Shown here: positions 1,041-48,505 of the stretch, in pieces
Layout of the letters: each line of letters opens with the position of its first letter
Position numbering within the stretch: position 1 is the stretch's first letter
Assembly (NCBI GenBank): GCA_021818465.1
Contig: JAKAEA010000001.1
Location: forward strand, 375,712-439,711
Direction: 5' to 3'
Source of the DNA: a bacterium
Lineage (GTDB): Bacteria; Patescibacteriota; Minisyncoccia; Phycocordibacterales; JAKAEA01
Length of the DNA stretch: 64,000 nt
The notes under the pieces: generated by a model
Seen by the model: only the letters and a program-made list of their open reading frames with translations
What the model was told of the DNA's origin: nothing
Databases searched by the model: none
Made by a program: the position numbers and the translations under genes

Positions 1041-1495
1041 TGCGCTATACTAGGACGATGGAACGCGCGCTTACCGGTACACTCTCATTGATACCGAGTT
1101 ACCTCTATTGGCACTACCTGAAAGCCTCGCCACGTATCTGGCGACACGTGCATACTGGCGCGTGGTTTTTTTGGAATTTTTTCTCTATTGGTCTTTTGAC
1201 GCGTACGTTTTTTGCGCCGTGGTGGCGTGAGCGAGAACAAACACGTTTTACCGCGGCGACGCTTTTTAGTATTGATGAACTAGCCGACTATGTGTCCAGT
1301 AAACTTATGAATGGCGTGGTGCTGGTATTTGGTGTGATTGTGCGTGGGGTGGTTATTGGTGTGGGACTCTGCGCTGAAGTGGTGCTGTGGAGTGGTGCGG
1401 TGATCTTTTTTGTACTATGGCTCGTGTTGCCTGCCCTCGTTATGTACTTTCTTTTTATTGGTATTGTTTTTGTGGTACGCCCACTACCGCTATGA
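1040..1495 (+). CDS. Small polytopic membrane protein, unknown function
   Basis: Start overlaps the upstream stop in ATGA fashion. There are several hydrophobic helices (LVFGVIVRGVVIGVGLCAEVVLWSGAVIFFVLWLVLPALVMYFLFIGIVFVV). Confidence 0.35.
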   Translation: MRYTRTMERALTGTLSLIPSYLYWHYLKASPRIWRHVHTGAWFFWNFFSIGLLTRTFFAPWWREREQTRFTAATLFSIDELADYVSSKLMNGVVLVFGVIVRGVVIGVGLCAEVVLWSGAVIFFVLWLVLPALVMYFLFIGIVFVVRPLPL

Positions 1496-10922: not shown

Positions 10923-12305
10923 ATGACGAATTTTACAAAAGATGTACACGATGTTTTTGAAGCGCCAGCAGACATTCTAGAAGATACTATCAAAATAGTT
11001 GGCCGAGAAGAAAAAGCTATTTTGCACGAAAAGCCACTGAAGCTTGCGGAAGATTATTTTAATACTCTTGGACCGGGATTAGTGACGGGCGCTGCCGATG
11101 ATGATCCGTCGGGTATTGCCGTGTATTCACAAACCGGAGCGACCTATGGTTTTCAATTGTTGTGGCTCATGCTTTTTACCTTTCCATTCATGGCGATTAT
11201 TCAGGAGATGTGCGCGCGAATTGGAGTGGTAACGGGGCGTGGTTTGGCAGCGAACATCCGTAGTCATTATTCCTCACGAGTATTGTATGGCGTCGCAGCA
11301 TTACTTTTTATTGCTAATACGTTCAATATTGCCGCTGATTTGGGGGCTATGGCCGCGAGTACGCGTTTACTCGTGCCGCATCTTAATTTTTTATTACTGG
11401 TGAGCGGTTTTGCTCTGCTTATGATGCTCGTGCAGATTTTTACTTCGTATGCGCGGTACGCAAAAATTCTCAAATGGTTAACGTTGGCACTTTTTGCCTA
11501 CGTGGTAACCGCGTTTATGATCGGTTTAGATTGGAGTGGGGTGCTATACCACACCGTGGTGCCAACCGTAACGCTCTCTCAGAATCAACTTTTTTTGATA
11601 TGCGCTATTTTAGGAACGACCATTTCACCGTATCTGTTCTTTTGGCAAACGTCGCAAGAAGCTGAAGAACAACACTATACAGAAAATAAAATAACCAAAG
11701 CTGTACATGCTGAACCGCACGAAACTATAGTTAAAAAAAATATTCGAAAAATGCGAATCGATGTATGGAGTGGCATGTTTTTTTCAAATGCAATTTCCTT
11801 TTTTATTATGGCCACATGCGCGGCAACATTGTACGCCCATGGAATTACAAACATAGCTACTGCTGATCAAGCGGCGTTAGCGATTCGACCATTTGGTGGC
11901 GTGTTTACTTATTTCTTATTTGCCGTGGGTATTGTTGGCACTGGTCTTTTAGCTGTTCCCGTACTTGCTGGTTCTAGTGCCTATGCGATTGCGGAGAGTT
12001 TTCGCTGGCGAGAAGGTTTGCGATATACCCTGACACAAGCCCGAGCTTTTTATGGCGTTATTATTATTTCTATGTTGGTGGCAATACTGGCGAATGTTGC
12101 GGGGTTAGATCCTATTAAGGGGCTTATTTATGCCGCTGTAGCTAATGGGCTCGTGGCCCCGATCGTGATTTTCTTTATACTTCGTCTCAGTGGCAGAATG
12201 AAGCGTTATGGAAACCACCCGTTTGTTACGGTGCTTGGTTGGCTCGTGTTGCTGCTTATGAGTGTGTCGGGTTTAGCCGCAATCATTTCCTTGTTTATTG
12301 TATGA
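10923..12305 (+). CDS. mntH: NRAMP-family divalent metal (Mn2+/Fe2+) transporter
   Basis: GPGLVTGAADDDPSGIAVYSQTGATYGFQLLW and MAIIQEMCARIGVVTGRGLA match the NRAMP consensus TM1 and TM6 regions. Eleven to twelve TM helices. Confidence 0.7.
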   Translation: MTNFTKDVHDVFEAPADILEDTIKIVGREEKAILHEKPLKLAEDYFNTLGPGLVTGAADDDPSGIAVYSQTGATYGFQLLWLMLFTFPFMAIIQEMCARIGVVTGRGLAANIRSHYSSRVLYGVAALLFIANTFNIAADLGAMAASTRLLVPHLNFLLLVSGFALLMMLVQIFTSYARYAKILKWLTLALFAYVVTAFMIGLDWSGVLYHTVVPTVTLSQNQLFLICAILGTTISPYLFFWQTSQEAEEQHYTENKITKAVHAEPHETIVKKNIRKMRIDVWSGMFFSNAISFFIMATCAATLYAHGITNIATADQAALAIRPFGGVFTYFLFAVGIVGTGLLAVPVLAGSSAYAIAESFRWREGLRYTLTQARAFYGVIIISMLVAILANVAGLDPIKGLIYAAVANGLVAPIVIFFILRLSGRMKRYGNHPFVTVLGWLVLLLMSVSGLAAIISLFIV

Positions 12306-14065
12306 TGTTTCATTTTCGTTTTGTGCGAATATTTTGGCCGGCACTTGTAGTTGTGGTGCTGCTCAGTATTGGTGTCGGGGGAGTGCCATTTGCTTTAGTG
12401 CTAGCAACACTCGTTGGAGTGCTACACATCCTTGTTAATTCCTTTATAGAGTTACGTCAGCGAAGATATAGTTTGGATTATATTGCCTTTGTGGCGTTAA
12501 TAGTTTCTATAGTCTCGGGACAATATTTGGCTGGGGCGGTGGTCGCGCTCATGTTTACTGGTGGTCGTGGTTTGGAAGCATTTGCTTCCCAGCGCGCATA
12601 TGCTGCACTCAAATCACTCGGCGATGCAATTCCTAAACGAGTACTGGTGTGGCGAGACGGTTCGTATCAAGAAGTAGCTGTGCAACACATTCAAGCGGGG
12701 GAACGGATTTTAATAAAAGCAAATGAATTAGTGCCGCTCGATGGGATCCTCGTGTCAGAGGCTGGTACGTTTAATCTAGCTAATTTAACCGGTGAAATAC
12801 TACCGGCAGATTTCAAAAAGGGGACGTTTATAAAGAGTGGATTGGTGAATACGGGTACGACGGTGGAAATACGTGTCGTCGGCGATTTCTCATCGTCCAC
12901 ATATCACAAAATTGTAGAACTCGTTGCTGATGCTCGCGCCCATCCTGCTCGTCTTGTTCGTGTATCAGAACGAGCTAATATTTATTTTACTATTATTACA
13001 TTTGTATTTGTGGTGTTGGCATACCTTATAGATGGTAGTGTTGTTCGATTACTTGCTGTACTTGTCATTGCCACACCGTGCCCGCTTATTATTGCGGCGC
13101 CAGTAGCATTTTTAGGCGGTATGTCGCGTGCGGCACGAGCAGGTATTATTGTGCGACGGCCGGCGGCCTTCGAAGGGCTTGATGCGGCAGATGCAATTTT
13201 CTTTGATAAAACGGGTACGTTGACTATTGGCGAGCCGACGTTGTCTCTGGTCACGCCCTATGGATCACTATCAGAAACGGACGTGTTAAAAATTGCTGCA
13301 GCAATTGAAATACATTCTCTACATCCGCTGGCGCGAGCGACAGTACATGCAGCTACGCATCGTGGTATTACATTTCCAATCGCCACAGACGTTACAGAAA
13401 CTATAGGGCGAGGAATTAGTGGTGTGGTGGACGGTACTCGATATACCATCATTGGTTGCGCGCATACCCATCATGGTATTGCTTTGGAATTACGGTCGTC
13501 TGAAACTATATGCGCGCATTTTTATTTTGCTGATACGTTGAAACATGGCGCGGCAGATTTTTTGAAAAATCTTTTAGAGCAGGGGATTCGAACGGAGATT
13601 ATTACTGGTGATACTAAAGAGAACGCCGCGGCTGTATTTGCAGGCATTCCCGTAACCATTCGTGCCGAGACGTCACCAGAAGAAAAGTATCGACGTGTGG
13701 AACAGGCTCACGCTGCTGGTCAGATTGTCGTCATGATCGGTGATGGTCTAAATGACGCACCAGCGCTTGCTCGTGCTGATGTCGGTGTTGTATTTTCGGG
13801 AGGTGAGAATGGAGCGTCTATTACTGCGGCCGATGTGGTAGTGTTGCACCATCACATAGAAAAAATTTCTGAACTTTTTGCGACCGCTCATCGAACGGTG
13901 CGTATTGCTCGGCAAAGCATGTATGGTGGCATCGCCCTTTCTGCAATCGGTATGGCGTTTGCTGCTTTTGGTTTTATCGCGCCGGTTACTGGTGCATTGC
14001 TACAGGAGATAATTGATGTTGTTGTTATTGTGAATGCATTGCGGGCATTGAGTGCTCGGTTTTAA
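12302..14065 (+). CDS. P1B-type heavy-metal translocating P-type ATPase (TPCP-motif subgroup, no N-terminal metal-binding domain)
   Basis: TGE (NLTGEILPAD), the TM6 motif ATPCPLII, DKTGTLT, GDGLNDAPAL. I moved the start to ATG 12302, which overlaps the mntH stop. Confidence 0.8.
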   Translation: MMFHFRFVRIFWPALVVVVLLSIGVGGVPFALVLATLVGVLHILVNSFIELRQRRYSLDYIAFVALIVSIVSGQYLAGAVVALMFTGGRGLEAFASQRAYAALKSLGDAIPKRVLVWRDGSYQEVAVQHIQAGERILIKANELVPLDGILVSEAGTFNLANLTGEILPADFKKGTFIKSGLVNTGTTVEIRVVGDFSSSTYHKIVELVADARAHPARLVRVSERANIYFTIITFVFVVLAYLIDGSVVRLLAVLVIATPCPLIIAAPVAFLGGMSRAARAGIIVRRPAAFEGLDAADAIFFDKTGTLTIGEPTLSLVTPYGSLSETDVLKIAAAIEIHSLHPLARATVHAATHRGITFPIATDVTETIGRGISGVVDGTRYTIIGCAHTHHGIALELRSSETICAHFYFADTLKHGAADFLKNLLEQGIRTEIITGDTKENAAAVFAGIPVTIRAETSPEEKYRRVEQAHAAGQIVVMIGDGLNDAPALARADVGVVFSGGENGASITAADVVVLHHHIEKISELFATAHRTVRIARQSMYGGIALSAIGMAFAAFGFIAPVTGALLQEIIDVVVIVNALRALSARF

Positions 14066-14082: not shown

Positions 14083-14727
14083 ATGACTATTAAAAAAATA
14101 GGGCATTGTTGTTTACATATACACGTACACGGAGTAACAATTCTTACTGATCCAGGTAGGTTTACTGAAGCGCAAAATACACTCACGGATATTGATATCA
14201 TACTCATCACACATGAGCACACAGATCATTTACATATAGAATCGTTGCAAGAGGTTTTGAAACATAATCCTCATGCCACTGTTGTTACCAATTCTGGAGT
14301 TGGTAAAAAATTAGACGCTATGCGCATTCCCTACACGATTCTTGAACATACTGATACGCTGACCCTTAAGGGGGTGGCGCTACAAGCTTTTGACGGTATA
14401 CACGAAGAAATTTTTGAGGAAATTGGGCAAGTGCAAAATACCGGGTATTTTATTGCCGATACATTGTTTTATCCGGGCGATTCGTTTTGCAAACCAGCAA
14501 ATCGGTCAGTGAATGTGCTTGCGCTGCCGGTGGCGGGGCCGTGGTGTCGTATTGCTGATGCTATTCGTTATTGTCTAGCGGTTAAGCCGCAGAAAGCTTT
14601 TCCTGTTCACGATGGCATGCTAGAACCTCACAATCTTGGTTTGGTGCATACTATACCGCAACAGGTGGTGACTGCACACGGAATAGAATTTGTGCCACTG
14701 CGGGCGGGTGATGAAAAAGAATTTTAA
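14083..14727 (+). CDS. MBL-fold metallo-hydrolase
   Basis: The HxHxDH motif (ITHEHTDH) plus downstream His/Asp ligands. Confidence 0.7.
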   Translation: MTIKKIGHCCLHIHVHGVTILTDPGRFTEAQNTLTDIDIILITHEHTDHLHIESLQEVLKHNPHATVVTNSGVGKKLDAMRIPYTILEHTDTLTLKGVALQAFDGIHEEIFEEIGQVQNTGYFIADTLFYPGDSFCKPANRSVNVLALPVAGPWCRIADAIRYCLAVKPQKAFPVHDGMLEPHNLGLVHTIPQQVVTAHGIEFVPLRAGDEKEF

Positions 14728-14736: not shown

Positions 14737-15312
14737 ATGTCCATTTCTGCAACTAGTATCAACACGCTTTGGCTGATTTTTGTTTTGTATTGGTTTGTGC
14801 TTGCATTTTTTGCAAAGAAAAGTATTGTACGAGGTTTACGCTGGCGTCAAACTATATGGTTTCGGGTGTTACTTATTATTGCAGTCCTGATTATAGTGCA
14901 CGTACAGTCCGCGCATAATTCTTTGTGGAAATCATTAACGTTTTCTTTTACAAATCCTATCGTGAATACTATCGGCATTGTTGTATGCGCACTCGGTCTT
15001 GGGCTTGCGGTGTGGGCGCGTATGTATCTGGGGCGCAACTGGGGCATGCCAATGTCATTACGAAAAAATCATGAACTTGTTACCAGCGGACCGTATCGGT
15101 ATATTCGTCACCCGATTTATAGCGGTATCTTACTTGCGGCACTTGGATCGACACTAGCGAGTACTACGTGGTGGTTATTGGTATGTGTCGCCTATGGCGC
15201 ATACTTTTTTTATAGCGTGAATGTGGAGGAAAATATGATGACTAAAGAGTTTCCTGATCACTATCCGGCATACATGGCGAAAACTAAGCAACTGATTCCG
15301 TTCGTGTACTAA
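14737..15312 (+). CDS. Isoprenylcysteine carboxyl methyltransferase (ICMT/PEMT) family membrane methyltransferase
   Basis: Multi-TM protein with the C-terminal signature GPYRYIRHPIYSG. Confidence 0.7.
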   Translation: MSISATSINTLWLIFVLYWFVLAFFAKKSIVRGLRWRQTIWFRVLLIIAVLIIVHVQSAHNSLWKSLTFSFTNPIVNTIGIVVCALGLGLAVWARMYLGRNWGMPMSLRKNHELVTSGPYRYIRHPIYSGILLAALGSTLASTTWWLLVCVAYGAYFFYSVNVEENMMTKEFPDHYPAYMAKTKQLIPFVY

Positions 15313-15332: not shown

Positions 15333-18300
15333 ATGAAGTCGTCATCGGAAGCGCGATTTACCGATAGAAAATTAACGCTTCTTGCCGCCACACTTGCGCG
15401 AAAAAACCTTTTGTCTAGAACTGAGAGCAGTTCGCGGCAATTTTTCCATACTCTTAAAAAAGAAATTGATGCTACGCTAACAGCCTACGCTGAACTTGTT
15501 GCTGACGTGAATGCATCTCGGTATGTGAGCCGAGAGGTTGAATGGCTCATGGATAATTTTTATGTCGTAGAATCAGCCGCAGAGGATGTTACGCGATCAC
15601 TGAAGAGCGAAGATATTCAAAAATTACCTTCACTACTAACGAAAGCTGGTACGACGGTGCCGCATGTCTACGATGTGGTGTTTGAATTGCTTCGCGGCAC
15701 TGACAATACTGTTACCACAGAAAATGTATCGGTTTTTTTCAATCGGTATCAGCGGGAATATCCGCTTTCGATTCGTGAAGCCAATGCGATACCACTCATG
15801 CTTAAACTTGTGTTGGTGTTAAATATTCGTGATCTCATCACGTCGTCGCTCGTGTTGGTACGAGAATATTCTGAAGCAGAGGAAATTTTAAAGAAAATTG
15901 ATACGACAACCAAAAAATCGCTCGCGCAAATTTCATATGTGGAAGTGGTTAGTATGCTGACAACGCACTACAAGACGTTGTCGTCGGGATTGGGTGTTTA
16001 TCTTATAGAGCAACTTTCTCAATCTGGTTCGCACATGCGCCCAGTGATTCGTTGGCTTAAGTTGCATTTATTACAACAAGGGGTGAGCATTGAACGATTG
16101 CGAGAAATTGATAATGAGCAACGCGATAAACGTATTTTGGCGGCGGCGAATATTGTTGAGGGATTACGGTGGGTAAGTCAAATTCGCTGGGATGATTTTT
16201 TGGAAAAAATTAATCCTGTAGATGCAATTTTAACGCGTGATCCAGCTCAGCAGTTTGCCATTATGGATAGTCGAAGTAAGAGTGCATATTATCAGCGTAT
16301 TGTGCAATTGGCGGATGGCTCGGGAGTAGCAGATGTGGCCATAGCGCGGCTCGCCGTCAGATTGGCGCGTGCTCATGCCGACGGCGAACCGCGCGCTCCC
16401 GAGGCGCACGTTGGCTATTATCTTGTAGACGATGGCGCCTCTCAGTTAGAAGAGATGATTCATTATCGGCCACCATTTTCTGAGCGTGTGCATCGTTGGA
16501 TTTTGCGCTATCCAACACAGTGTTATTTTTCTCTTATTGCTGCTATAACGGCTATTGTCGGTTATCCACTTTTTTTATGGTTCACAACACAACCGATACC
16601 TGAAATTATACGTCTCTTTGTTGTACTTGCGACGTTACTGCTTTCCATTGATATTGCTCTATCTGTGCTCCATGCTTTTTTGGTGGGAACGTTGCCGGTT
16701 CGACGTCTTTTTAGTTTAGACACACTTGCTACTGGTCTTACCCCCGAACAGGCTACGTGTGTTGTTGTGCCGTCTATGATGCGAAATGTGGCAGCGTTAG
16801 ATGTTTTATTCTCTCGTTTTGAAAGTAATTTTGTCGGCAACCAAAGTACTAATATTTTTTTCATACTACTACTTGATTTTCCTGATGCACCACAAGAAAT
16901 TATGCCAGATGATGGAAAACTTTTAGAAGAGGTGCGCCGGCGTATTCAAGCGCTCAATGAAAAATATCCAACAAAAATTCCAACATTCTACGCTTTGTGT
17001 CGAAAACGAATGTGGAATCAACGTGAAGGAGTGTTTATGGGGTGGGAACGTAAGCGCGGTAAACTTCGTGAGTTCAATAAACTTATTCGTGGCGCGACTA
17101 ATACTAGCTACGTCAATACTGAAGTGCTATCGCTGCCGCGCATCACGTACGCTATTACCTTAGATGAAGATACAGAATTACCACGCGAAGGAGCACATCG
17201 ACTTATCGGGTGCATTGATCATGTGTTGAATCGACCACAACTTACTACCAATCGAATGGTGACGCGGGGGTATGGCATTATCCAACCACGGGCAAGTATG
17301 CGAATGCATGTTGCCAATCAAACTTTTTTTTCACGTCTTTTCTCGACAGCGAGCGGCATTGATTCATACGCGGGACCTAGTGCTGACCTGTATCAAGATC
17401 TTTTTGGAGCTGGTATTTTTTATGGTAAGGGTATCTACGACATTGACGTCGTGGAAACAACTATGGACGATGCTATTCCTGAAAATACAGTATTGAGCCA
17501 TGATTTGCTTGAGGGGTTATACACGCGAGTTGGTTTTGCTTCTCATATTCAAGTGTTTGAGGGTTTTCCGGCCCGTTTTAGTGAGTATTCACTTCGTCAA
17601 CGCCGCTGGATTCGAGGTGATTGGCAAATTATATCTTGGTTGTGGAATCGCTCGGTACACTTTAGTTTTATTGATCGCTGGAAAATTTTTGACAATCTTC
17701 GCCGCAGTGTACAGCCCATTGTGGCAGTTGGATTACTTTTACTGACGGCATTCTACATGCCGCACGCAGTGGTTGCGGTGAGTGTCGCTATTATTGCAAC
17801 CTTTTTCCTTGGCAGTAGCATCGGCATTATATATTCGCTTGTACCGCGTATGCGATTGGGGATTATTAAGAGTATTCTTGCACAATTATTTCGTGGATTA
17901 TTGAGTGAGGTGGTGCGCACCGTAGTTCGAGGTACGCTGCTATTTTATGAAGCGCTCGCCTTGCTTCAAGAAATTGTATTGACCATATTTAGAATGTGTA
18001 TTTCTCACCGCCATTTGCTTCAGTGGCGTACTGCTCACGAGGTGGCTCAAAAATATAAAGGTACAATTATAGAGTACATACGACTCATGGGGGTAGCGAG
18101 TGTTCTGGTATTGGCCATCGGTTGGTTTGTGGTTGTGGTTCATCCCGCATCAGATACGTTTACGTTTTTATTTTGGATTGGTATGTGGTGCTGCGCCCCG
18201 TTTTTTATGTTTTTACTTGGCTTGGTGGCTGTTGAGAAAGAATTTTCAGCACGACAGAAACGATTTTTGCGCACGATGGCGTATCGCAGCCTGCGTTATT

Positions 18301-21300
18301 TTATAGATTTTGCTACAGAAAAAAATAATTACTTAATTCCCGATCATTATCAAGTTGATATTCCGTACAGTGGTTTTGCGCCTGGTACCATGACGTCTAT
18401 TACCAATATTGGCATGATGCTTGCATCTTTTTATTCAGGTCATCGATTGGGATTTATTAGTCAACGAGAACTTCTTGAACGTTTGCGTCGCTCGTGTGAC
18501 ACACTTTCTACACTAGAGCGTTATAAAGGTCATTTTTACAACTGGTACCACATCCATCATCGGCAAGCGGCAATGCCTAAATATATTTCTTCTGTCGATA
18601 GTGCTAATTTTCTTTTTGTTTTAACCGCGCTTATTCAAGGTTTACGTGCTATGCCACAAACCCCCGTGGTGCACGATGGAGCACAAGAAGGATTAGAAGA
18701 CATGTTGAACACCATTAAAGAAGACGCACTCAGCGTGATACGTTCTGGGCCACCCAAGGATATTATTAAATTTATTCGCGCTGTATACGATGGAACGCAC
18801 CGGGCTCTACTTGATGTGCGTAAGTTATCTACAGCGACGCCAAGTTTGTATGCACACATGTTGCGCGAGATGGAATTACGAATGAATCATCTGTGGGAAT
18901 TTATCGAAAATGCACGCGCGCAAAGTGACCATCCTAATGTTGTATATTTGTACGCTAGTATTCAATCCGTTCGTCAGCATATTATAACCAGTCGAGCTGA
19001 AGCGGATACGCTGTTGTCTTTTCATATTTTAGCCAGTGCACGGGAAGCGCGCGGAACAAGTGCACATGGCGGAGGATTGGGCGTTTTTTATCAAAAAATT
19101 GCAACGTTAGCCAATACTATGCCCACGCTTGCCGCATTGGCCGATGGCTACTATTCAAAGGCACTCCAAATGTTAGATGTTGAAACATGTCTTTCTCAAG
19201 CAGCAATTTCTTCCCAAGATCAAGCCTCGATAAAAACATGGTTTACCAATTTACGTACGCGAAGTGCGCAAGCAGAAACAGCGGCCCAAGCAGTACTTGA
19301 AGAGGTGCGGTCTGTACGCGTATTGTGTGAACAGTGGACAAACGAAACCGACTTTACTTTTCTATACAACACTGAGCGCGGTCTTTTTCATATTGGTTAC
19401 AATGTGACGACTGACACTATTGATAATGCCTACTATGATTTTTTGGCTTCCGAATCAAATGCGGTGAGTTTTTGGGCAGTAAGCCGTGGGACGGCGCGCC
19501 TGGAACAATGGTTTCGTTTGAGCCGTCAACTTATTAGTCATGAAGGTGTTGATACAGCGTTAGCCTCGTGGGGTGGATCGCTCTTTGAATATTTAACGTC
19601 ACTCCTATTCTTAAACGTAGCACCCACAAGTATTCTGAATGAAGCAGCGCGCCGAGCTATTCATTCTCAACGAGCGTATGCGCGACAAAAACATGTTCCG
19701 TGGGGTATGGGTGAATCGGCTTTTGCGATTCGCCACCCCAATGGCGACTATCAATATCAAATTTTCGGTGACCCTGGGCTTGGCTTGAAACGAGGATTAG
19801 GTGAACGGCTCGTTGTTGCGCCATATACCACAGCTCTTTCGCTTTCCTACACAGGTGTTGCTGGTATACGAAATCTTAAGAAACTTATCACAGAAGGATG
19901 TTGGGGAATATATGGATTTTTTGATGCAATTGATTATACCGAAAGTGCCGGAGTCTTTTTTAAAAAAAGGGGAGTACCGGTAAAAATTTACTATGCGCAT
20001 CATCTTGGTTTTACTATTGCAGCAATTACTAATGTTCTCACCAATGATGTGCTCAAGGAGCTTTTTCATCGCGATCCACACATGCATTCCGTTGATGTTA
20101 TTTTAGATGAACAATATCCTGTTGCAGTTCCACTGCCGCACGCACATGATCAATTAGCATCTGAACGTCAGTGGAAACTACTGCACCGACCAACAAAAGG
20201 CGTGGTGGAATATGTACCTATTGTTTCTGATCACTCGTATCGTTACGCTGTTTTGTCTAATGGCACTTATACACTCACTATCAATAATTCTGGTGGTGGT
20301 TGGAGTTCGTATCGAGATACGTTGCTTACGCGCCAATCACTCGATCCGTTAGAAAGTCGTTGTGGTAATTTTATATACCTGCGTGACGTAAAATCAGGGG
20401 CAGTGTGGTCGACGACCTATGTGCCAACCTTTTCCAAAGGTGCTCGAGCTCGAACGATGTTTTCCGATGATAAGGTAGAATTTCATCAGCTACAAAATAC
20501 CATTCAAAGTACAGTGGTTATTTCGGTAGCCACTGACGAACCGGTGGAAATGCGAACTGTGACGCTCACGAATGTTGGTACTACGCCGCGCACGCTCGAT
20601 GTGACAAGTTATGGAGAAGTGGTGCTCGCAAAATCTGAAGAGTATCTGCAGCATCCGTCATTTCAAAAAATGTTTGTCAGCTCTGCGTTTCATAGCAATG
20701 TTGCTGCTATTGTTTTTTCGAAACGTTCATCGAATGATGCTAAAAGTACCATTAGTTTATTTCATTCAGTGGTAAGTCATTATCGTGATAGAACAAATGC
20801 AGTTGCTAGTTTGGCGCGCGAAGATTTTCTTGGTCGGCACGGCTCATTGATTGCACCGCCTGGCAGTACACCGAGTTTTACTCCTGTTGAACATCCGGAA
20901 CACACGCTTGATCCTATTTTTTCTTTGAGTAAACGAGTAACCTTAGGAGCGGGGCAATCAGTATCTCTCTCGTTTATTACTGGTGTTGCTGCCACGAATG
21001 AAGCGGCACTTCGACTGGCAACAAAGTATCAGAAAATTCGCATTCCATTTCGTTATGCAGAACTTTTTCATCGACCGGCGCGCACTATTGATGCTCTGGG
21101 CAGTATAGGCGTTACGCCATATCATCTTGAATTATTTCAGCGATTACTCTCGGGAATCATTTCTTTTGAATTTTGTCAGTATCTTCCCGAACAACTTTTT
21201 AGTGGCGCATCATATATGCGCACACTTTGGAAATATGGCATATCCGGCGATCGACCTCTTGTGGTGGTACGTATTTCCAATGCCGGCGATATTCCTTTTG

Positions 21301-24074
21301 TGCGCACAGTGTTGCTCTTGTATCGATATTGTCAACATAAAAACGTGGCGATTGATCTCGTTATCCTTAATGAGTACCCGGCAGGTTACGTAAAGACTTT
21401 TGAAGATGATATTGGTTTACTCATTCGTCAACTAACGACACCAGATACTAATTCTGAACAAGGTTCCGTGTTCCATCTTAAAACTGTATTGATGGATACC
21501 GCTGATGTTACATTGATACGTGCACTGAGTCGTCTGTGGTTGGATAGTAATAAAGGCTCATTAGAAAAACAAATAAAAGAGCTCACCGCTCCCAACATAC
21601 ATCCTCTGCCTGCTAAGTTTAAAGCAACAAAAGCAGCTACATTTAAAAAAGAAGAACTTGCTCGACCGCGCAATCTTTTGTTTGCTAATAGTATTGGAGG
21701 TTTTGATGAGCATCGGGGGGAATATGTTATGTACCTCTCAAAAAATAGTCGTACACCAGTGCCTTGGGTTAATGTTATTGCCAACGAATATTTTGGTACA
21801 GTAGTCACGGAAAGTGGTGCCGCAACAACATGGTCGGATGATAGTTTTGATAATCGTTTAACACCCTGGCAAAACGATTCGCTGGTAGATCGCTCAGGTG
21901 AGTCATTATATCTGCGCGATGAAGAAACGGGTACGGTTTGGAGTCCAACACCTTCGCCAAGCAAAATAGGGAATCCGTATATTGTGCGTCATGGAACGGG
22001 GTATAGCGTGTTCGAATCTCTTTCGTTTGAAATTAAAACGAATCTTGTTGTGTTCGTGCCACGTCGCGATCGAATAAAAGTACACATACTCACGCTTACT
22101 AATACTGGTGAACGCGAGCGACGTGTCTCATTAACGACATACGTAGAACCAGTTCTCGGCACATTCAGAGAAAAAACTCGGGTACATGTTGCTGTGCGAC
22201 GAGATTCTGCATCGGGAGTTATGCTAGCTCAAAATAGATTTCGTCCTCAGTTTTTTGAACGGTGTATGTTTGTTGATAGTGGTCCAGATAGTGCGTACAC
22301 CTCAGATCGACGTGAATTTTTGGGCGCTCATGGACGTATTGACGCGCCAGTCGCGTTGCGGCGCGAAACATTATCCAATACGCTTGGCCACACTGATGCT
22401 TGCATTGCACTTTCTCGTACCGTGACAGTGGCCCCGGGCCAGTCGGTGGAGTTGGTGGTGACTATTGGCGAAGCTGCGGACACTGCACAAGCAATTGCCA
22501 TCGCACAACAGTATCGATCACTAGATGTATCCAAAGCTGCACTAACCGACGTGCAAGATTTTTGGAATTCTGAACTCAACGCTCTTACTTTTACAACACC
22601 TGATGCGGCGATTAATCTTTTGGCTAACCGTTGGCTTCTCTATCAAGCGCTCTCGTCCCGTATGTTTGCCAAAACTGGTTTTTATCAACCCTCCGGTGCT
22701 TTTGGTTTTCGCGATCAACTTCAAGATATGGCGGCATTTGTGTGGAGTAATCCAGCACGTTTTCGAGAGCATATTATAACTGCGGCGCGACACCAATTTC
22801 GTGAAGGTGACGCTCTTAATTGGTGGCATACGCATAATAATTTCGGTGTTCGCAGTACTATTGTCGATCACCACGCTTGGTTACCGTGGGCGGTGAGTTT
22901 GTATGTGATAGCCACCAATGATCGAACGATTTTGGATGAGCACGTTGCATTTTTAGAATCGCCCGTAGCCATTACTGCGATTAACAAACGATGGGCAGGC
23001 ATACCACAACAAACTTCAGAAACAGCTACCGTGTATGAACACTGCATTCGAGCAATTGAAAAAAGTCTTGTGTTTGGAGCGCACGGGTTACCGCTGATGG
23101 GCGGTGGCGACTGGAATGACGGTCTGAATCGTGTCGGTGATGGCGGTCGCGGGGAAAGTGTGTGGTTTGCGTGGTTCCTTATTCATATCTTGTCACACTT
23201 TATTCTTATTGCCGAACAAGTTGGTGACAGCGAAAAGGTTCAGCGGTACAAAACAATTACCAACGACCTTCACACAGCTATCGAAAAGCGTGCCTGGGAT
23301 GGCGCTTGGTACTACCGCGCTTTTCTTGATAGTGGTGCGCCACTCGGTTCTTCAACGAACCGTGAATTTAAAATAGATTCTATTGCTCAATCGTGGTCGG
23401 TTCTTTGTGGGTACGGCGATCGTGAGCGCAGCGTTAAAGCCCTCGCTTCTGTTAAAGAAAAATTGATGGCCGATGGCGATTCTATTCGTCTCATTGATCC
23501 ACCGTTGGATAAGATGACCATCGATGTTGGTTATTTAGCGGCCTATCCGCCAGGTGTACGAGAAAATGGTGCTCAATATAATCATGCCGCGCTTTGGGCT
23601 ATTCAAGCGTTTGCGCTTTTAGGTGACGCAGACGCAGTAGAGGAAGGTTTGCGTCGTATTAATCCAATCATCCGTTCTGATTCTAAAGAAAAAGTAATGA
23701 CCTATCGTGTGGAACCGTATGTTATCGCTTCCGATATTTACACTGCACCATCGTATCCTGGTCGGGGTGGTTGGACATGGTATACCGGTTCAGCGGGTGT
23801 TTTGTATCGCACACTCGTTGAATATATTTATGGAATGCGAAAAACGGGCAACACGCTTTCGTTTCGACCATCATTACCACGCTCGTGGAATGAGTGCAGT
23901 CTTGTGTATCGCTATGGACAAGCGATCTATAAAATCACTATACATCGTGACCCGCATGCCACGGAAAAAATTTCCATCACTCTTGATGGGCAAAAAATGT
24001 CTGGAGACAGTGTACTATTGTCTGATGAGCGGGGAGAACGAAATATTGACGTTTTGGTGTCTAATGTGCTATAA
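15333..24074 (+). CDS. Cyclic beta-1,2-glucan synthase-like giant protein (NdvB/Cgs/ChvB family; GT2/GT84 processive glycosyltransferase plus C-terminal GH94-like phosphorylase domain), 2913 aa
   Basis: A single 8.7 kb ORF. TM helices at about aa 395-470 and 790-960. GT2 motifs DxD (TLDEDTELP) and Q(R/Q)xRW (LRQRRWIRGDWQ). The C-terminal region carries the GH94 catalytic signature GGGDWNDGLNRVG. The length and order match Brucella/Rhizobium Cgs/NdvB. Confidence 0.8.
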   Translation: MKSSSEARFTDRKLTLLAATLARKNLLSRTESSSRQFFHTLKKEIDATLTAYAELVADVNASRYVSREVEWLMDNFYVVESAAEDVTRSLKSEDIQKLPSLLTKAGTTVPHVYDVVFELLRGTDNTVTTENVSVFFNRYQREYPLSIREANAIPLMLKLVLVLNIRDLITSSLVLVREYSEAEEILKKIDTTTKKSLAQISYVEVVSMLTTHYKTLSSGLGVYLIEQLSQSGSHMRPVIRWLKLHLLQQGVSIERLREIDNEQRDKRILAAANIVEGLRWVSQIRWDDFLEKINPVDAILTRDPAQQFAIMDSRSKSAYYQRIVQLADGSGVADVAIARLAVRLARAHADGEPRAPEAHVGYYLVDDGASQLEEMIHYRPPFSERVHRWILRYPTQCYFSLIAAITAIVGYPLFLWFTTQPIPEIIRLFVVLATLLLSIDIALSVLHAFLVGTLPVRRLFSLDTLATGLTPEQATCVVVPSMMRNVAALDVLFSRFESNFVGNQSTNIFFILLLDFPDAPQEIMPDDGKLLEEVRRRIQALNEKYPTKIPTFYALCRKRMWNQREGVFMGWERKRGKLREFNKLIRGATNTSYVNTEVLSLPRITYAITLDEDTELPREGAHRLIGCIDHVLNRPQLTTNRMVTRGYGIIQPRASMRMHVANQTFFSRLFSTASGIDSYAGPSADLYQDLFGAGIFYGKGIYDIDVVETTMDDAIPENTVLSHDLLEGLYTRVGFASHIQVFEGFPARFSEYSLRQRRWIRGDWQIISWLWNRSVHFSFIDRWKIFDNLRRSVQPIVAVGLLLLTAFYMPHAVVAVSVAIIATFFLGSSIGIIYSLVPRMRLGIIKSILAQLFRGLLSEVVRTVVRGTLLFYEALALLQEIVLTIFRMCISHRHLLQWRTAHEVAQKYKGTIIEYIRLMGVASVLVLAIGWFVVVVHPASDTFTFLFWIGMWCCAPFFMFLLGLVAVEKEFSARQKRFLRTMAYRSLRYFIDFATEKNNYLIPDHYQVDIPYSGFAPGTMTSITNIGMMLASFYSGHRLGFISQRELLERLRRSCDTLSTLERYKGHFYNWYHIHHRQAAMPKYISSVDSANFLFVLTALIQGLRAMPQTPVVHDGAQEGLEDMLNTIKEDALSVIRSGPPKDIIKFIRAVYDGTHRALLDVRKLSTATPSLYAHMLREMELRMNHLWEFIENARAQSDHPNVVYLYASIQSVRQHIITSRAEADTLLSFHILASAREARGTSAHGGGLGVFYQKIATLANTMPTLAALADGYYSKALQMLDVETCLSQAAISSQDQASIKTWFTNLRTRSAQAETAAQAVLEEVRSVRVLCEQWTNETDFTFLYNTERGLFHIGYNVTTDTIDNAYYDFLASESNAVSFWAVSRGTARLEQWFRLSRQLISHEGVDTALASWGGSLFEYLTSLLFLNVAPTSILNEAARRAIHSQRAYARQKHVPWGMGESAFAIRHPNGDYQYQIFGDPGLGLKRGLGERLVVAPYTTALSLSYTGVAGIRNLKKLITEGCWGIYGFFDAIDYTESAGVFFKKRGVPVKIYYAHHLGFTIAAITNVLTNDVLKELFHRDPHMHSVDVILDEQYPVAVPLPHAHDQLASERQWKLLHRPTKGVVEYVPIVSDHSYRYAVLSNGTYTLTINNSGGGWSSYRDTLLTRQSLDPLESRCGNFIYLRDVKSGAVWSTTYVPTFSKGARARTMFSDDKVEFHQLQNTIQSTVVISVATDEPVEMRTVTLTNVGTTPRTLDVTSYGEVVLAKSEEYLQHPSFQKMFVSSAFHSNVAAIVFSKRSSNDAKSTISLFHSVVSHYRDRTNAVASLAREDFLGRHGSLIAPPGSTPSFTPVEHPEHTLDPIFSLSKRVTLGAGQSVSLSFITGVAATNEAALRLATKYQKIRIPFRYAELFHRPARTIDALGSIGVTPYHLELFQRLLSGIISFEFCQYLPEQLFSGASYMRTLWKYGISGDRPLVVVRISNAGDIPFVRTVLLLYRYCQHKNVAIDLVILNEYPAGYVKTFEDDIGLLIRQLTTPDTNSEQGSVFHLKTVLMDTADVTLIRALSRLWLDSNKGSLEKQIKELTAPNIHPLPAKFKATKAATFKKEELARPRNLLFANSIGGFDEHRGEYVMYLSKNSRTPVPWVNVIANEYFGTVVTESGAATTWSDDSFDNRLTPWQNDSLVDRSGESLYLRDEETGTVWSPTPSPSKIGNPYIVRHGTGYSVFESLSFEIKTNLVVFVPRRDRIKVHILTLTNTGERERRVSLTTYVEPVLGTFREKTRVHVAVRRDSASGVMLAQNRFRPQFFERCMFVDSGPDSAYTSDRREFLGAHGRIDAPVALRRETLSNTLGHTDACIALSRTVTVAPGQSVELVVTIGEAADTAQAIAIAQQYRSLDVSKAALTDVQDFWNSELNALTFTTPDAAINLLANRWLLYQALSSRMFAKTGFYQPSGAFGFRDQLQDMAAFVWSNPARFREHIITAARHQFREGDALNWWHTHNNFGVRSTIVDHHAWLPWAVSLYVIATNDRTILDEHVAFLESPVAITAINKRWAGIPQQTSETATVYEHCIRAIEKSLVFGAHGLPLMGGGDWNDGLNRVGDGGRGESVWFAWFLIHILSHFILIAEQVGDSEKVQRYKTITNDLHTAIEKRAWDGAWYYRAFLDSGAPLGSSTNREFKIDSIAQSWSVLCGYGDRERSVKALASVKEKLMADGDSIRLIDPPLDKMTIDVGYLAAYPPGVRENGAQYNHAALWAIQAFALLGDADAVEEGLRRINPIIRSDSKEKVMTYRVEPYVIASDIYTAPSYPGRGGWTWYTGSAGVLYRTLVEYIYGMRKTGNTLSFRPSLPRSWNECSLVYRYGQAIYKITIHRDPHATEKISITLDGQKMSGDSVLLSDERGERNIDVLVSNVL

Positions 24075-24075
24075 T
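24046..24075 (+). promoter_or_regulatory. Near-consensus sigma70 promoter for the Tyr-rich mini-protein gene
   Basis: TTGACG, an 18 nt spacer, then TATAAT. The -10 box overlaps the giant gene's stop codon. A strong SD (AAAGGAGGTG) lies 5 nt before ATG 24123. Confidence 0.5.
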
Positions 24076-24122: not shown

Positions 24123-24449
24123 ATGAAGAACACGCTTTGGGGAATTGTTTTGGCTGCGGTACTCATTCTTTTTTTGATGCCGTCGGCCCCGGCTCGCGCT
24201 GATATCCGCGTCAATGTTCTTGGAGGACTGGTGCGGGTGTATGTTTATGGTGGGTATGGGTATTCTTGCCCGTCATACTATCAACCGTATTATCAGTCAT
24301 ATTGTCCGCAGCAGTACTATCAGCCAGCGTACTGCGCACCTCAACAATACTGTTACCCGCAACAGTATTATGCACCACGCTATTATTCGTCGCCGTGTTA
24401 CCGGGGCGGATGGCGTGGGGGGTTCCATCGAGGCGGATGGCATCGCTAG
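24123..24449 (+). CDS. Secreted Tyr/Gln/Pro/Cys-rich low-complexity mini-protein (signal peptide plus about 82 aa mature region)
   Basis: Signal peptide MKNTLWGIVLAAVLILFLMPSAPARA. The mature part has about 19 Tyr and 5 Cys in YYQP/QQYY repeats and a GGWRGGFHRGGWHR tail. It has its own promoter and SD. A GC-rich hairpin plus T-run follows at about 24480-24512. Confidence 0.55.
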   Translation: MKNTLWGIVLAAVLILFLMPSAPARADIRVNVLGGLVRVYVYGGYGYSCPSYYQPYYQSYCPQQYYQPAYCAPQQYCYPQQYYAPRYYSSPCYRGGWRGGFHRGGWHR

Positions 24450-24570
24450 TCCTTCCTTGGCCAGTTCCACACTGGCTGCGCGCTCCCTGCCCCCGGGGCG
24501 CGTTTTTTATTATCAAAAAAAGACGAGCACCAAAAGTATTGTTATAATCGTATAGATGTGAAAGTTTGGG

Positions 24571-25230
24571 GTGCGTCAGTTTGTCATACTTATTATGAAG
24601 TTTTTGGGCACCAATAAAAAAGTCTCCCTGGAAAATACAGGGAATTTTGATACATCTTCACAAACTTCTCTGAGTGACATTGATTTAATTGAACGTTATT
24701 GTGATGGCGATGAACAAGCATTCACGATATTAGTTACACGGCATGCTGCTGTTGTATATAGTTTTGTTGTTCGATATGTTGGTAGTGGAGCTGAGGCGGA
24801 AGATATTGTACAAGATGTGTTTGTGAAGACGTGGAAAAATTTAAAACGTTTTGATACAAAACGAAATTTTCGTACCTGGATTTTTACTATTGCAAAAAAT
24901 ACTGCACTCGATTGGTTAAAAAAGAAAAAACCAACTGCGTTTTCAGAACTACATACCAGTGATGAGAAGGCGCCTGCATTTGAAGAAACTTTAGCGACCG
25001 ATGAGCCATTACAAAGCGATGTGCTTGAACAGCGGCAAACGCACGAAGCTTTATCTGCGGCGCTGGCAACACTGTCAGCAGAATATCGTGCCGTTGTGCT
25101 CTTGCGGTTAGATAATCAGTTCACATTTCGAGAGATTGCTGAAGCACTCAACAAACCATTAAATACTGTAAAGAGCCACTATCGGCGGGCAGTTAATGTA
25201 CTCAGTACTAAACTTGGTCGCACCAAATAA
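24571..25230 (+). CDS. ECF (group 4) sigma factor
   Basis: Region 2 (IVQDVFVKTWKNLKRFDTKRNFRTWIFTIAKNTALDWL) and region 4 (EYRAVVLLRLDNQFTFREIAEALNKPLNTVKSHYRRA). Confidence 0.8.
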   Translation: MRQFVILIMKFLGTNKKVSLENTGNFDTSSQTSLSDIDLIERYCDGDEQAFTILVTRHAAVVYSFVVRYVGSGAEAEDIVQDVFVKTWKNLKRFDTKRNFRTWIFTIAKNTALDWLKKKKPTAFSELHTSDEKAPAFEETLATDEPLQSDVLEQRQTHEALSAALATLSAEYRAVVLLRLDNQFTFREIAEALNKPLNTVKSHYRRAVNVLSTKLGRTK

Positions 25231-25254
25231 ATACATACGTTCGTACAAATAGGT

Positions 25255-25662
25255 ATGCATCAAACGATTTCCACATCAAATATAAAACGCCTTACGCCAC
25301 CAATTGATTTAGTACGTCGTATTTTACAACGTATAGAAATTGAAAAATTGCGTCAAAAAGTTCGTCGTTCGTTGGTTGCGTGGATTTCAATAACGTGTCT
25401 ATCCGTCGCCGGTCTTGTTGTGACCGGTATATTCTTTTTTCAAGAAGCGGCCACTTCTGGTTTCAGTGCATATATAAGTCAAATGTGGGCCTTACTACGT
25501 ACCAATCCCGGTCTTGTGATAGAACACTGGCAAGATATTTTAACATCTGTCAGTGAAGCATTACCGGTTGTTGGTTTGGTAGGTGTTGCGATAACTATAG
25601 GACTTGCACTCTGGTCGGCTGATAAAGTCATTGGTTTTGGAAGAAAATGGAGAGCGGTATAG
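25255..25662 (+). CDS. Putative membrane-anchored anti-sigma factor (assigned by position only)
   Basis: Lies immediately downstream of the ECF sigma gene. Cytoplasmic N-terminus, two TM helices. No zinc-binding anti-sigma motif is seen. Confidence 0.3.
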   Translation: MHQTISTSNIKRLTPPIDLVRRILQRIEIEKLRQKVRRSLVAWISITCLSVAGLVVTGIFFFQEAATSGFSAYISQMWALLRTNPGLVIEHWQDILTSVSEALPVVGLVGVAITIGLALWSADKVIGFGRKWRAV

Positions 25663-25683
25663 CAATTTCAGTCTCATATTTTT

Positions 25684-26178
25684 ATGCACGCTTCAAAAAC
25701 TGTGATATGGATTGTCGGTAGCATTATCGGTCTCATCGTTGTGTTACTCGCTTTTCGTACTGGTATGGTTATTGGATATCGCCAAGCTGAGTATTCAGCG
25801 GCATGGCAACACTTTCGTGCTAGTCACGCAAATACGCCTTTTGGTCGTGGTGGACTTTTACAAGCATTTACCAATCCCAATGATTTTATAAATGATCATG
25901 GTGCTATCGGTACTATTGTATCCATAGCTACCACCACCGCTACAGGTACAAGTATTATTGTTCACGATATTCACGATGCCGTAAATAAAACTATATACGT
26001 TTTTTCTACAACAACCGTACTCGGCACACGAGCGATGGCGCGAAACTATCCTGTTTCTGCATCAATGTTTCAAGTTGGTGAGGGTATAGCAGTGATAGGT
26101 ACACCAGGCAGCCAAGGACAAATAGTAGCCAGTATCATCCATCTTGTACCTGCTTCGTCGCTCGGGTTACTACAATAA
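25684..26178 (+). CDS. Membrane-anchored extracytoplasmic protein, unknown function
   Basis: An N-terminal TM (VIWIVGSIIGLIVVLLAF) and a Thr-rich beta-type domain. Confidence 0.3.
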   Translation: MHASKTVIWIVGSIIGLIVVLLAFRTGMVIGYRQAEYSAAWQHFRASHANTPFGRGGLLQAFTNPNDFINDHGAIGTIVSIATTTATGTSIIVHDIHDAVNKTIYVFSTTTVLGTRAMARNYPVSASMFQVGEGIAVIGTPGSQGQIVASIIHLVPASSLGLLQ

Positions 26179-26210: not shown

Positions 26211-28022
26211 ATGAACATTTTTACTACAATCGGTGTCTATATAAAAGCGCATAAAATAATTTCAACCTGTATCGCCATCGCGGTGCTGATTGAAGTAATT
26301 GCTATCGCGCGTGGCGCAGGAAATCCAATCATACCAACGTACGTTCTTGCCGCTGCCGAACGGGGTACTATTTCCCAAACGGTAAGTGGTACAGGTCAAG
26401 TAGAAGGCCAAAGTCAGGTAAATATTACACCGCAAGGTTCAGGTGGGCAGGTGGTGGCTATTAATGTCACACCCGGACAGATGGTGTCACAAGGCCAAAC
26501 ACTCATAACGCTTGATGATCAAACAGCTCGCGCATCGCTCACCCAAGCACAAGCAAATGTGGCCAGTGCTCAAGCTAATTATGATAAAGTTATTGAAGGA
26601 CTTACCCCAGCGCAAATTGCCGCCGATCAAGCAACAGTAACAAACGCAAGCCAGTCTCTTGTAGCCGAGCTCATTAGTGCATACACGCAAACGAATAATC
26701 TTTTACGCACCAATATCGACACACTGTTTACTAGTCCTACTACCGATCCAGCATTCGGTTTAAGTTTTCTTGATAGTAACGGTAATTTAGTCACGTTTAC
26801 TTCGACTGACCCAGTGTTGATAGCAAAAATTAATGGTGAGCGTGTACGAATTAATAGTTTGATGCCAGTGTGGCAAAATGATGTCAATTCACTTTCGTTA
26901 CAAGTAAGTACCTCATCAAGCAATTTGGCCCCGCATGTTGCATTGGCTCTTAGTGATTTGCAATTCATTGCTAATTTTTTAGATGATGTGTCGAATGCTG
27001 TCTATGGTATTTCAGCGCAGTACACGAAATATTCCAGCAATATTAGTTCTTATAAATCCACCGTTGCTTCAGCCTTGCAAACGATTGATTCGCAAATTTC
27101 TGGAGTAACGAGTAGTAACCAAGCACTTGTCTCTGCTCAGGCGAATTATAACGTTGACACCGCACCGCCAACTAATGCCGATATTCAAAGTGCACAAGCG
27201 TCACTTATAAGTGCTCAAGCAAGTTTACAGTCGGCGCAAACTACATATAACAATACACGCATTACCGCACCATTTTCTGGTCAGGTTGGTAATATTGGCG
27301 TACAAGTAGGTGATGTTGTGAGTGGATCTACTGAGGTTGCAACAATCGTGACAACGCAAAAGATCGCTGACATTTCACTCAATGAAGTTGATGCTGCTTC
27401 TGTGCATGTTGGCGATAAAGCAATACTTACTTTTAATGCTGTACCGAATGTAAGCGTGCCAGCCTATGTTTCAGAAATGTCGCTTGTGGGTACCGTCAGC
27501 TCGGGAGTCGTTGATTATGACGTAAAATTAGCACTAGCCACCAGTACAAATGGTTTCGGTTCTATCTTACAAGGTGTTGGTCAAGGTAGAAAAACGACAC
27601 TTTCTTCAACAACGATTGCAACATTTGAACAAAACGCTCAAAAAAAATTGACGCAAGCTTTAACGGAAATTAAACCAGGTATGAGTGTGACGGCTACCAT
27701 TACCACGAAAACGAGTGCGAACACTATCATTGTTCCGAGTTCAGCTCTCAAGAGTAATCCCGGTGGTCGAGGTGTGTATGTAGAGACATTGCCTGGAGTA
27801 ACAACAGCAGGTACGATTTCGAGTACTGCAGTGCCTCAGGCCATACAAATCACCACAGGTATTACTAGTGGGACAGAAACAGAAGTGACATCCGGTCTTA
27901 ATCAGGGTGATCTTATAATTATTGGCGGTGCCGGTGGGAGTAGTGTAGCTTCGGGCGTTGCTGCCGCAACGGTACAACGCGGTGGCTTTGGCGGCGGCGG
28001 GCGTATGTTTTTCGGTGGTTAA
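26211..28022 (+). CDS. HlyD/MacA-family periplasmic adaptor (membrane fusion protein) with extended coiled-coil and Gly-rich tail
   Basis: An N-terminal TM, lipoyl-like halves (QTVSGTGQVEG..VNITPQG and ITAPFSGQVGNIGVQVGDVVSG) and a long A/Q-rich coiled coil. Confidence 0.75.
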   Translation: MNIFTTIGVYIKAHKIISTCIAIAVLIEVIAIARGAGNPIIPTYVLAAAERGTISQTVSGTGQVEGQSQVNITPQGSGGQVVAINVTPGQMVSQGQTLITLDDQTARASLTQAQANVASAQANYDKVIEGLTPAQIAADQATVTNASQSLVAELISAYTQTNNLLRTNIDTLFTSPTTDPAFGLSFLDSNGNLVTFTSTDPVLIAKINGERVRINSLMPVWQNDVNSLSLQVSTSSSNLAPHVALALSDLQFIANFLDDVSNAVYGISAQYTKYSSNISSYKSTVASALQTIDSQISGVTSSNQALVSAQANYNVDTAPPTNADIQSAQASLISAQASLQSAQTTYNNTRITAPFSGQVGNIGVQVGDVVSGSTEVATIVTTQKIADISLNEVDAASVHVGDKAILTFNAVPNVSVPAYVSEMSLVGTVSSGVVDYDVKLALATSTNGFGSILQGVGQGRKTTLSSTTIATFEQNAQKKLTQALTEIKPGMSVTATITTKTSANTIIVPSSALKSNPGGRGVYVETLPGVTTAGTISSTAVPQAIQITTGITSGTETEVTSGLNQGDLIIIGGAGGSSVASGVAAATVQRGGFGGGGRMFFGG

Positions 28023-28041
28023 TACGTGTGGTGTGATTGTT

Positions 28042-48440: not shown

Positions 48441-48505
48441 TGCAAAAATGTACCACCGGCTTACCTTTTGGTTTAATTCTAATTTTCGTATACAATCTGT
48501 TTCGT

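Follow-up and report, generated by a model that had tools for sequence, protein, structure and literature searches.

A gene for a probable synthase of cyclic beta-1,2-glucan retained in the reduced genome of a Parcubacteria-type bacterium

What does a single gene of almost 9 kb encode in the reduced genome of a patescibacterium, and what could its product be for? We analyzed a 64,000-nucleotide stretch of contig JAKAEA010000001.1 (assembly GCA_021818465.1, positions 375,712 to 439,711; hereafter “the window,” whose coordinates we use unless another locus is named). It carries a gene, here called cgs, that a preliminary description made from the DNA letters alone had read as a synthase of cyclic beta-1,2-glucan (Cgs) of the NdvB/Cgs type. 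Our analysis indicates that the gene very probably does encode a Cgs, which belongs to an enzyme family already known and would work like its characterized relatives, because the protein matches such a relative collinearly and conserves its catalytic residues.

The open reading frame (ORF) occupies window 15333-24074 (+), starts with ATG, comprises 2913 codons plus a stop, is intact and free of frameshifts, and takes up 13.7% of the window; it is exactly the ORF that the preliminary description had put at about 14%. At 44% GC (guanine plus cytosine), a chance open frame of this length is excluded. Close relatives in the searched collections number two only, at 75% (GCA_027328845.1) and 65% identity (VFSW01004898), and both share a conserved N-terminus, MKSSSEARFTDRKL, that backs the chosen start. 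An Rfam scan of the window returned six tRNAs only, with no riboswitch or leader found near cgs, and repeat and tandem-repeat scans of window 14-26 kb gave only short matches at chance level.

A search of the PDB returned a collinear full-length match to the biochemically characterized Agrobacterium tumefaciens Cgs, whose structure was solved by cryo-EM (8RF0/8RF9; 1558 bits, E=0). Amino acids (aa) 34-1131 and 1319-2886 of the query align in order, and the sole unaligned stretch is a variable insert in the cyclization (CY) domain. On the basis of Pfam matches and PDB alignments (8RF0/8RF9, 8WY1), we assign to the protein the five-module layout described by Sedzicki et al. 2024 (PMC10901819): an N-terminal domain (NTD), two transmembrane (TM) helices, GT84, four TM helices, CY (GH189), and GH94 (Table 1). 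The three-part architecture proposed earlier was right as to the N-domain, the TM-flanked glycosyltransferase core, and GH94, but had missed the central GH189 domain, which has its own conserved Glu/Glu/His.

The NTD, at 394 aa, has a length typical for the Cgs family, and the Pfam match of the GT84 region (Glyco_trans_2_3) is weak. Hydropathy predicts six TM helices in a 2+2+2 arrangement (aa 399-446, 792-830, and 912-967), a layout that, as a prediction only, would put all soluble domains on the cytoplasmic face, as in the A. tumefaciens structure (PMC10901819). The CY domain matches the Thermoanaerobacter italicus Cy domain 8WY1 at E values of 5e-92 to 1e-89, as well as the A. tumefaciens CY domain, and is detected by Pfam as PF10091 “Glycoamylase” (3.7e-15, 56.5 bits versus a cut-off of 27). 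Its helical insert measures 253 aa, where the median of the family is 208 aa and alphaproteobacterial enzymes have 151-163 aa, and is the exception among domain lengths that are otherwise typical of the family. In the GH94 region, the supersandwich family PF06165 matches in two stretches (5.5e-124, 413 bits) and the catalytic family PF17167 matches as well (1.5e-97, 327 bits); the C-terminal ~790 aa also align with cellobiose phosphorylases (E 1e-77) and with 5H3Z (3.5e-12).

Table 1. Positions of the modules and mapped residues of the Cgs protein and of other features in the window (Atu, A. tumefaciens Cgs; TiCGS, T. italicus CGS)
Feature	Window position	Strand	Protein residues (aa)	Remarks
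N-terminal cytoplasmic scaffold domain	15333-16526	+	1-398	aligns with Atu NTD from aa 34
TM helices 1-2	16527-16670	+	399-446	hydropathy peaks aa 399-417, 428-446
GT84 (GT2-fold) glycosyltransferase with primer-tyrosine loop	16671-17705	+	447-791	residue mapping to Atu
TM helices 3-6	17706-18233	+	792-967	hydropathy peaks aa 792-810, 812-830, 912-936, 949-967
Cyclization (transglycosylase) domain, GH189 / GH144-like	18234-20165	+	~968-1611	~640 aa, with ~250-aa helical insert
GH94 phosphorylase region	20166-24071	+	~1612-2913	two supersandwich modules and catalytic (alpha/alpha)6 domain
GT84 UDP-binding Asp			D515	Atu D527
GT84 Arg			R573	Atu R586
GT84 DxD (D611-E-D613)			D611/D613	Atu D624/D626
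GT84 autoglucosylated primer tyrosine			Y679	Atu Y694; in GIDS-Y-AGP, IF1-homology loop
GT84 catalytic base			D724	Atu D739
GT84 Arg/Trp/Arg			R758/W759/R761	Atu R773/W774/R776
CY Ser/Asp			S1086/D1089	Atu S1101/D1104
CY acid/base			E1374	TiCGS E1356; Atu E1300
CY nucleophile			E1461	TiCGS E1442
CY supporting His			H1556	TiCGS H1536
GH94 Asp			D2461	Atu D2393; in GFRDQLQD
GH94 catalytic acid			D2596	Atu D2528; in GGGDWND(2596)G, motif aa 2590-2597
ClpB-like ORF	1387-3906	+
Nramp and P-type ATPase	10923-14065
MBL-fold hydrolase	14083-14727			upstream of cgs
PEMT/ICMT-like methyltransferase	14737-15312			between MBL and cgs
Best sigma-70-like promoter of the region	24046-24075			11/12 positions
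108-aa ORF	24123-24449	+
Best terminator of the region	24478-24503
ECF sigma factor and two membrane proteins	24571-26178	+		membrane proteins of 135 and 164 aa
MFP / ABC ATPase / MacB-FtsX set	26211-29984			downstream of cgs
Cupin-type (archaeal-like) phosphoglucose isomerase	49716-50321	-
LeuRS	51370-54231	+		NUDIX domain at aa 405-499
Sigma70 region 4 + HARE-HTH protein	54329-55375	+

We mapped functional residues from PMC10901819 and PMC11842490 (8RF0 numbering, checked on D624/D626), taking the roles of the A. tumefaciens residues from PMC10901819, and counted conservation in an alignment of 106 full-length homologues. By this mapping, every experimentally defined catalytic residue of Cgs is kept, including the primer tyrosine. 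D515 is Asp in 105 of the 106 homologues and all other checked sites are invariant, Y679 among them; for H1556, invariance was checked in the three close relatives only. TiCGS W1394 and the GH94 motif RENGAQYNH are conserved as well. The DxD and GGGDWNDG motifs of the preliminary description are where they should be, and the catalytic Asp residues, the QxxRW-type motif, and the GH94 domain, on whose loss that description would have been abandoned, are conserved relative to characterized Cgs. Its “QRRRW” was a slight misreading of a genuine (Q/R)xxRW-type motif: the actual string is L-R-Q-R-R-W (aa 754-759), an RxxRW form, with RQHRW at the equivalent site in Agrobacterium.

The characterized enzymes closest in design are A. 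tumefaciens Cgs/ChvB (8RF0, 8RF9; PMC10901819), Brucella abortus Cgs, and Sinorhizobium NdvB, which share the order NTD, TM1-2, GT84, TM3-6, CY, and GH94 with an extra subdomain. The window protein is similar in overall size to Cgs/ChvB, conserves its functional residues (D527 through D2528; Table 1), and is ~33-34% identical to alphaproteobacterial Cgs over ~2550-2590 aligned columns. It differs from this group in its host, a small-genome patescibacterium that presumably has a single membrane, and in that no chvA/ndvA-type exporter gene is adjacent. With the CGS of T. italicus, whose CY domain (8WY1; Tanaka et al. 2024, PMC10834661; review PMC11842490) is the founding member of GH189, it has the central domain and the catalytic residues in common. 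That enzyme is another Cgs from a non-proteobacterial host, but the two hosts belong to different phyla and the insert between two aligned blocks is ~122 aa long there versus ~178 aa in the window protein. Stand-alone GH94 enzymes (cellobiose and chitobiose phosphorylases; the 1,2-beta-oligoglucan phosphorylase 5H3Z of Lachnoclostridium phytofermentans) share the catalytic Asp of DWND; they are soluble, 800-1100 aa long, and catabolic, whereas the window protein joins the module to a synthase and a cyclase, and there it would serve length control. OpgH/MdoH, which makes linear or branched osmoregulated periplasmic glucans, is likewise a membrane glucosyltransferase of GT2 fold for envelope glucans. 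Membership in that family was rejected: NF003962 gives 21.8 bits versus a cut-off of 328 in a local 56-aa match, and architecture and product differ. No curated Cgs model matched among NCBIfam, where this weak MdoH fragment was the only result.

If the protein works like its characterized relatives, its GT84 domain would glucosylate Tyr679 with UDP-glucose as the donor and then elongate a beta-1,2 chain. The GH94 domain would shorten over-long chains by phosphorolysis, yielding glucose-1-phosphate, and the GH189 domain, using Glu1374 as acid/base and Glu1461 as nucleophile, would free the chain by intramolecular transglycosylation as a ring of ~17-25 glucoses. Our data show homology, domain order, retention of the known catalytic residues, purifying selection, and residence in a Patescibacteria genome; the cyclic product and the ring size, the source of UDP-glucose, the exit of the glucan, and its purpose are inferred.

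Genes for hexose-phosphate metabolism lie beside cgs in sister lineages. A cupin-type phosphoglucose isomerase (PGI) is convergent with cgs and directly downstream of it in five sister-clade loci: L050, L051, L066 (18837-19403), L085, and L130 (9297-9908). Directly upstream, L051, L066, L085, and L086 carry a phosphomannomutase (PMM)-like HAD phosphatase/mutase; a classical PGI adjoins cgs in L132, and GAPDH does so in L049. These neighbors would fit either the supply of UDP-glucose precursor or the recycling of glucose-1-phosphate. The window has a cupin-type (archaeal-like) PGI of its own (PF06560), 25 kb from cgs, to which the sister-locus homologues are ~58-61% identical. A search of the flanks of all loci found no galU-type nucleotidyltransferase motifs.

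Several observations weigh against reading the gene as a Cgs of conventional function. The Cgs of Patescibacteria are known from sequences alone, and the CY helical insert is ~90-100 aa longer than in the alphaproteobacterial enzymes. Neither galU nor phosphoglucomutase was found in the 84 kb examined of a contig of ~540 kb. In the same 84 kb (of at least 540 kb), i.e., the window and 10 kb either side, no Cgt/NdvA/ChvA-type exporter was found and no ORF has an ABC_membrane domain. Finally, the glucan would have to accumulate in the periplasm to fill its canonical role, which takes an outer membrane, and Patescibacteria are generally considered to have none.

Some of these points would also suit a protein of the same fold and domains with another output, whether linear beta-1,2-glucan, odd-sized rings, or a mainly degradative salvage of host beta-1,2-glucans to glucose-1-phosphate by GH94 phosphorolysis and GH189 disproportionation. 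The CY insert is longer than in characterized enzymes, the 84 kb yielded no gene of a UDP-glucose pathway, and the PGI and PMM-like enzymes of the sister lineages would be equally at home in glucose-1-phosphate catabolism. However, the complete GT84 machinery, primer tyrosine included, is invariant and under purifying selection, and an enzyme of pure catabolism would have no need of that machinery. Moreover, the soluble domains are all predicted to be cytoplasmic, so glucan from outside would need to be taken up beforehand, and finished rings are not cleaved by characterized Cgs (PMC11842490). We therefore regard such an altered output as quite unlikely and retain the synthesis of a cyclic glucan as the preferred reading.

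A glucan ring made in the cytoplasm would need a way out. The TM bundle of Cgs is not a channel, and export requires a separate transporter (PMC10901819). The sole ABC_membrane pair found near a member of the clade, in L053, was rejected as a candidate since it is a generic exporter of TM287/288 type or ABCB1-like and not Cgt-like. Our best guess is that the glucan would leave by way of a transporter unlinked to cgs.

Does the gene belong to the genome in which it was found? An identical protein is encoded on NCBI contig DAIEME010000001.1 (GCA_027341405.1; 539,823 bp), and four contigs carry it in total (NCBI, Logan, ENA). Scattered over the window and its 10-kb flanks are genes for UvrABC, Ddl, YchF, Tgt, MnmA, SerRS, AlaRS, and S13-S11-S4-RpoA-L17, together with six tRNAs. 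The window's LeuRS has a NUDIX hydrolase domain inserted just past its editing domain. The insert recurs in all 120 of the 120 best LeuRS homologues, some of which have extra alpha/beta-hydrolase fusions; those with names are Candidatus Paceibacter, Parcubacteria, or Patescibacteria, with single exceptions labeled Thermodesulfobacteriota, Ca. Fimivivens, and “bacterium.” (Paceibacter now stands under Minisyncoccota at NCBI.) The NUDIX insert thus looks like a lineage trait of Parcubacteria, and the host belongs, within Patescibacteria, to the Parcubacteria/Paceibacteria group. The reduced genome assumed in the preliminary description is supported by its Patescibacteria-type housekeeping genes and LeuRS.

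The relatives of cgs point the same way. A search with aa 1-1200 against 1.84 billion representatives gave 2750 clusters at E<=1e-30. A second tier of ~11 clusters at 37-41% identity (709-889 bits) is followed by a drop to 636 bits or less; these clusters coincide with the metagenome loci that form sister branches in a neighbor-joining tree (106 sequences, 2653 columns). In this tree, the window clade has a bootstrap value of 100, its grouping with 9 further loci one of 75, and a 17-sequence Cgs clade one of 100. Within the last, L066 and L085 are Candidatus Taylorbacteria-like, with the L066 HisRS 82% identical to a named Taylorbacteria protein. In L093, YchF (64%), LeuRS (52%), Sigma70_r4/HARE-HTH (63%), DUF8128, and YceG are ordered as in window 48425-57691. 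In L131, L132, and L133, cgs lies among housekeeping genes and many small ORFs of no assigned function. Three lineages of the 17-sequence clade, the window's own included, can be placed in Parcubacteria, and since the clade has these members, cgs looks, on sequence comparison, like an old resident of part of Parcubacteria and not a recent import. A scan of GTDB representatives found 42 cgs loci at 29-38%, none of them labeled Patescibacteria, a weak negative in that the scan depends on exact words of the query peptide; they come from Bacteroidota, Planctomycetota, Chlorobiota, Bacillota, Spirochaetota, Chloroflexota, and Sumerlaeota, with single loci titled Limnohabitans and Methanothrix. Full-text literature searches found no paper tying Cgs, NdvB, or GH94 to CPR, Patescibacteria, or Parcubacteria.

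Beyond the three close relatives, all homologues are at or below ~42% identity in any search, as might be seen if the gene were foreign to the genome, i.e., a chimera of assembly or binning, a recent horizontal passenger, or a gene in decay. However, cgs lies inside a 540 kb contig with host-type genes either side, two further genomes show this arrangement too, and the sister sequences are also from Parcubacteria. The GC content of cgs (0.444) and that of its third codon positions (GC3, 0.356) are the values of host housekeeping genes, and its ratio of nonsynonymous to synonymous substitutions (dN/dS) is ~0.05-0.06 versus the 75% and 65% relatives, with dS saturated. By composition, selection, and synteny in three genomes, cgs is a resident gene under purifying selection, and a chimera or recent transfer is effectively refuted.

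Can the neighboring genes tell us how the glucan is modified or exported? The MBL-fold and ICMT-like genes that the preliminary description had noted beside cgs are both present, in the order MBL and then PEMT/ICMT-like. It had proposed that they act in glucan modification and that the exporter downstream, here a set of membrane fusion protein (MFP), ABC ATPase, and MacB, transports the product. In the close relatives, the gene order is DUF2914, Nramp, P-type ATPase, MBL, ICMT, cgs, ECF sigma factor, two uncharacterized genes, MFP, ABC, and MacB, except that the 65% relative has no P-type ATPase, MBL, or ICMT between Nramp and cgs. Nramp, P-type ATPase, MBL, ICMT, and cgs are co-directional and tightly packed, with gaps of 9-33 bp, and all three close relatives have the genes from sigma factor to MacB downstream of cgs, which would favor a functional unit. 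Against this, the flanking synteny reaches unrelated housekeeping genes (GidB, ABC-2, DUF2914) and so reflects close relatedness. When we compared the window neighbors by tblastn with 127 fetched cgs loci, the close relatives alone matched the MBL, the ICMT, the MFP, the MacB permease, and the two uncharacterized proteins. For the ECF sigma factor there were weak matches (28-30%) in two other loci, and elsewhere only ABC ATPase similarity of a generic kind; apart from these, none of the neighbors recurs by ~120 other cgs loci. In addition, the enzymes known to modify such glucans, namely succinyl, phosphoglycerol, and methylmalonyl transferases, are of other families.

The pump is further set apart from cgs by the genes between them: a small secreted-protein ORF, the ECF sigma factor, and two membrane proteins. 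The best sigma-70-like promoter of the region overlaps the cgs stop codon and the best terminator follows the small ORF, so that a promoter-like site, a small gene, and a terminator separate cgs from the sigma/pump block. We consider it very improbable that the MBL and ICMT-like proteins modify the glucan and the pump exports it. Because MBL and ICMT are missing from the 65% relative and, like the MFP and MacB genes, from distant loci, the adjacency of all these genes is better read as lineage synteny than as evidence of modification or export. We thus rejected an accessory role for MBL and ICMT, and the MacB-type pump as glucan exporter, for which comparative support is nil and a separate transcription unit intervenes.

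The small ORF of 108 aa has a promoter of its own that is close to consensus, a signal peptide, a Tyr/Gln/Pro/Cys-rich tail, and a strong AAAGGAGGTG Shine-Dalgarno sequence; public gene calls at this position are in another frame or strand. The 75% relative (L044 ~18820-19270), but not the 65% relative, has a counterpart that is rich in Tyr/Gly/Cys and shares this Shine-Dalgarno sequence. The two membrane proteins after the ECF sigma factor match neither Pfam nor NCBIfam, and the set is kept in all three close relatives; placed before the pump, it looks like a module for envelope stress or peptide resistance under sigma/anti-sigma control.

Other features were noted in passing. Divalent-metal transport genes adjoin cgs in three lineages, as Nramp and a P-type ATPase in the window, a P-type ATPase in L132 (14092-15927), and Zip, FUR, and an iron permease in L133 (6917-9349). 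A review lists iron storage among the roles reported for cyclic glucans (PMC11842490); that these genes adjoin cgs may be chance. The ClpB-like ORF is 839 aa long in the ORF listing and 804 aa in the public gene call, and Pfam sees only its second AAA module (AAA_2 and ClpB_D2-small), leaving ~570 N-terminal aa without a family match. The window also combines Sigma70 region 4 and HARE-HTH in one protein, whose counterpart in the distant Parcubacteria locus L093 shows 63% identity.

What, then, might the glucan do? The general view is that Patescibacteria have no outer membrane. For this reason, the role of periplasmic osmoprotectant that had been carried over from Proteobacteria is not directly transferable: as an osmolyte of the periplasm the glucan is unlikely to serve in this cell, where we expect only one membrane; as a conjecture, it is more likely to be released or to act in the wall zone. 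Our best guess, no less conjectural, is that an exported glucan would act beyond the membrane, either in the wall zone or where the cell touches its host. One could go further and suppose that cyclic beta-1,2-glucan is a long-retained symbiosis factor of Parcubacteria, a ring released by a cell without a periplasm and acting at host contact. This idea, which we rate as unlikely, draws indirect support from a 9 kb gene having been kept vertically for long in genomes of ~0.5-1 Mb and from the lack of a compartment for an osmolyte role. The ring might, for example, carry or extract, in the manner of a cyclodextrin, lipids of the host membrane or other hydrophobic molecules that Parcubacteria cannot make; the glucan of Brucella reportedly acts on host membrane cholesterol.

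The enzyme itself would be a textbook Cgs that adds nothing mechanistically, and the interest of the finding lies in its host lineage and its long retention. The description of Cgs as the maker of a “periplasmic osmoprotectant of Proteobacteria” is too narrow for a family of ~2750 clusters at 50% identity that spans many phyla, some of them single-membrane. Although most biosynthesis has been lost in Patescibacteria, one set of lineages within Parcubacteria keeps a glucan machine of 2900 aa under strong purifying selection. Almost no envelope or host-contact molecules are known in Patescibacteria, and cyclic beta-1,2-glucan would be a concrete, assayable candidate for one.

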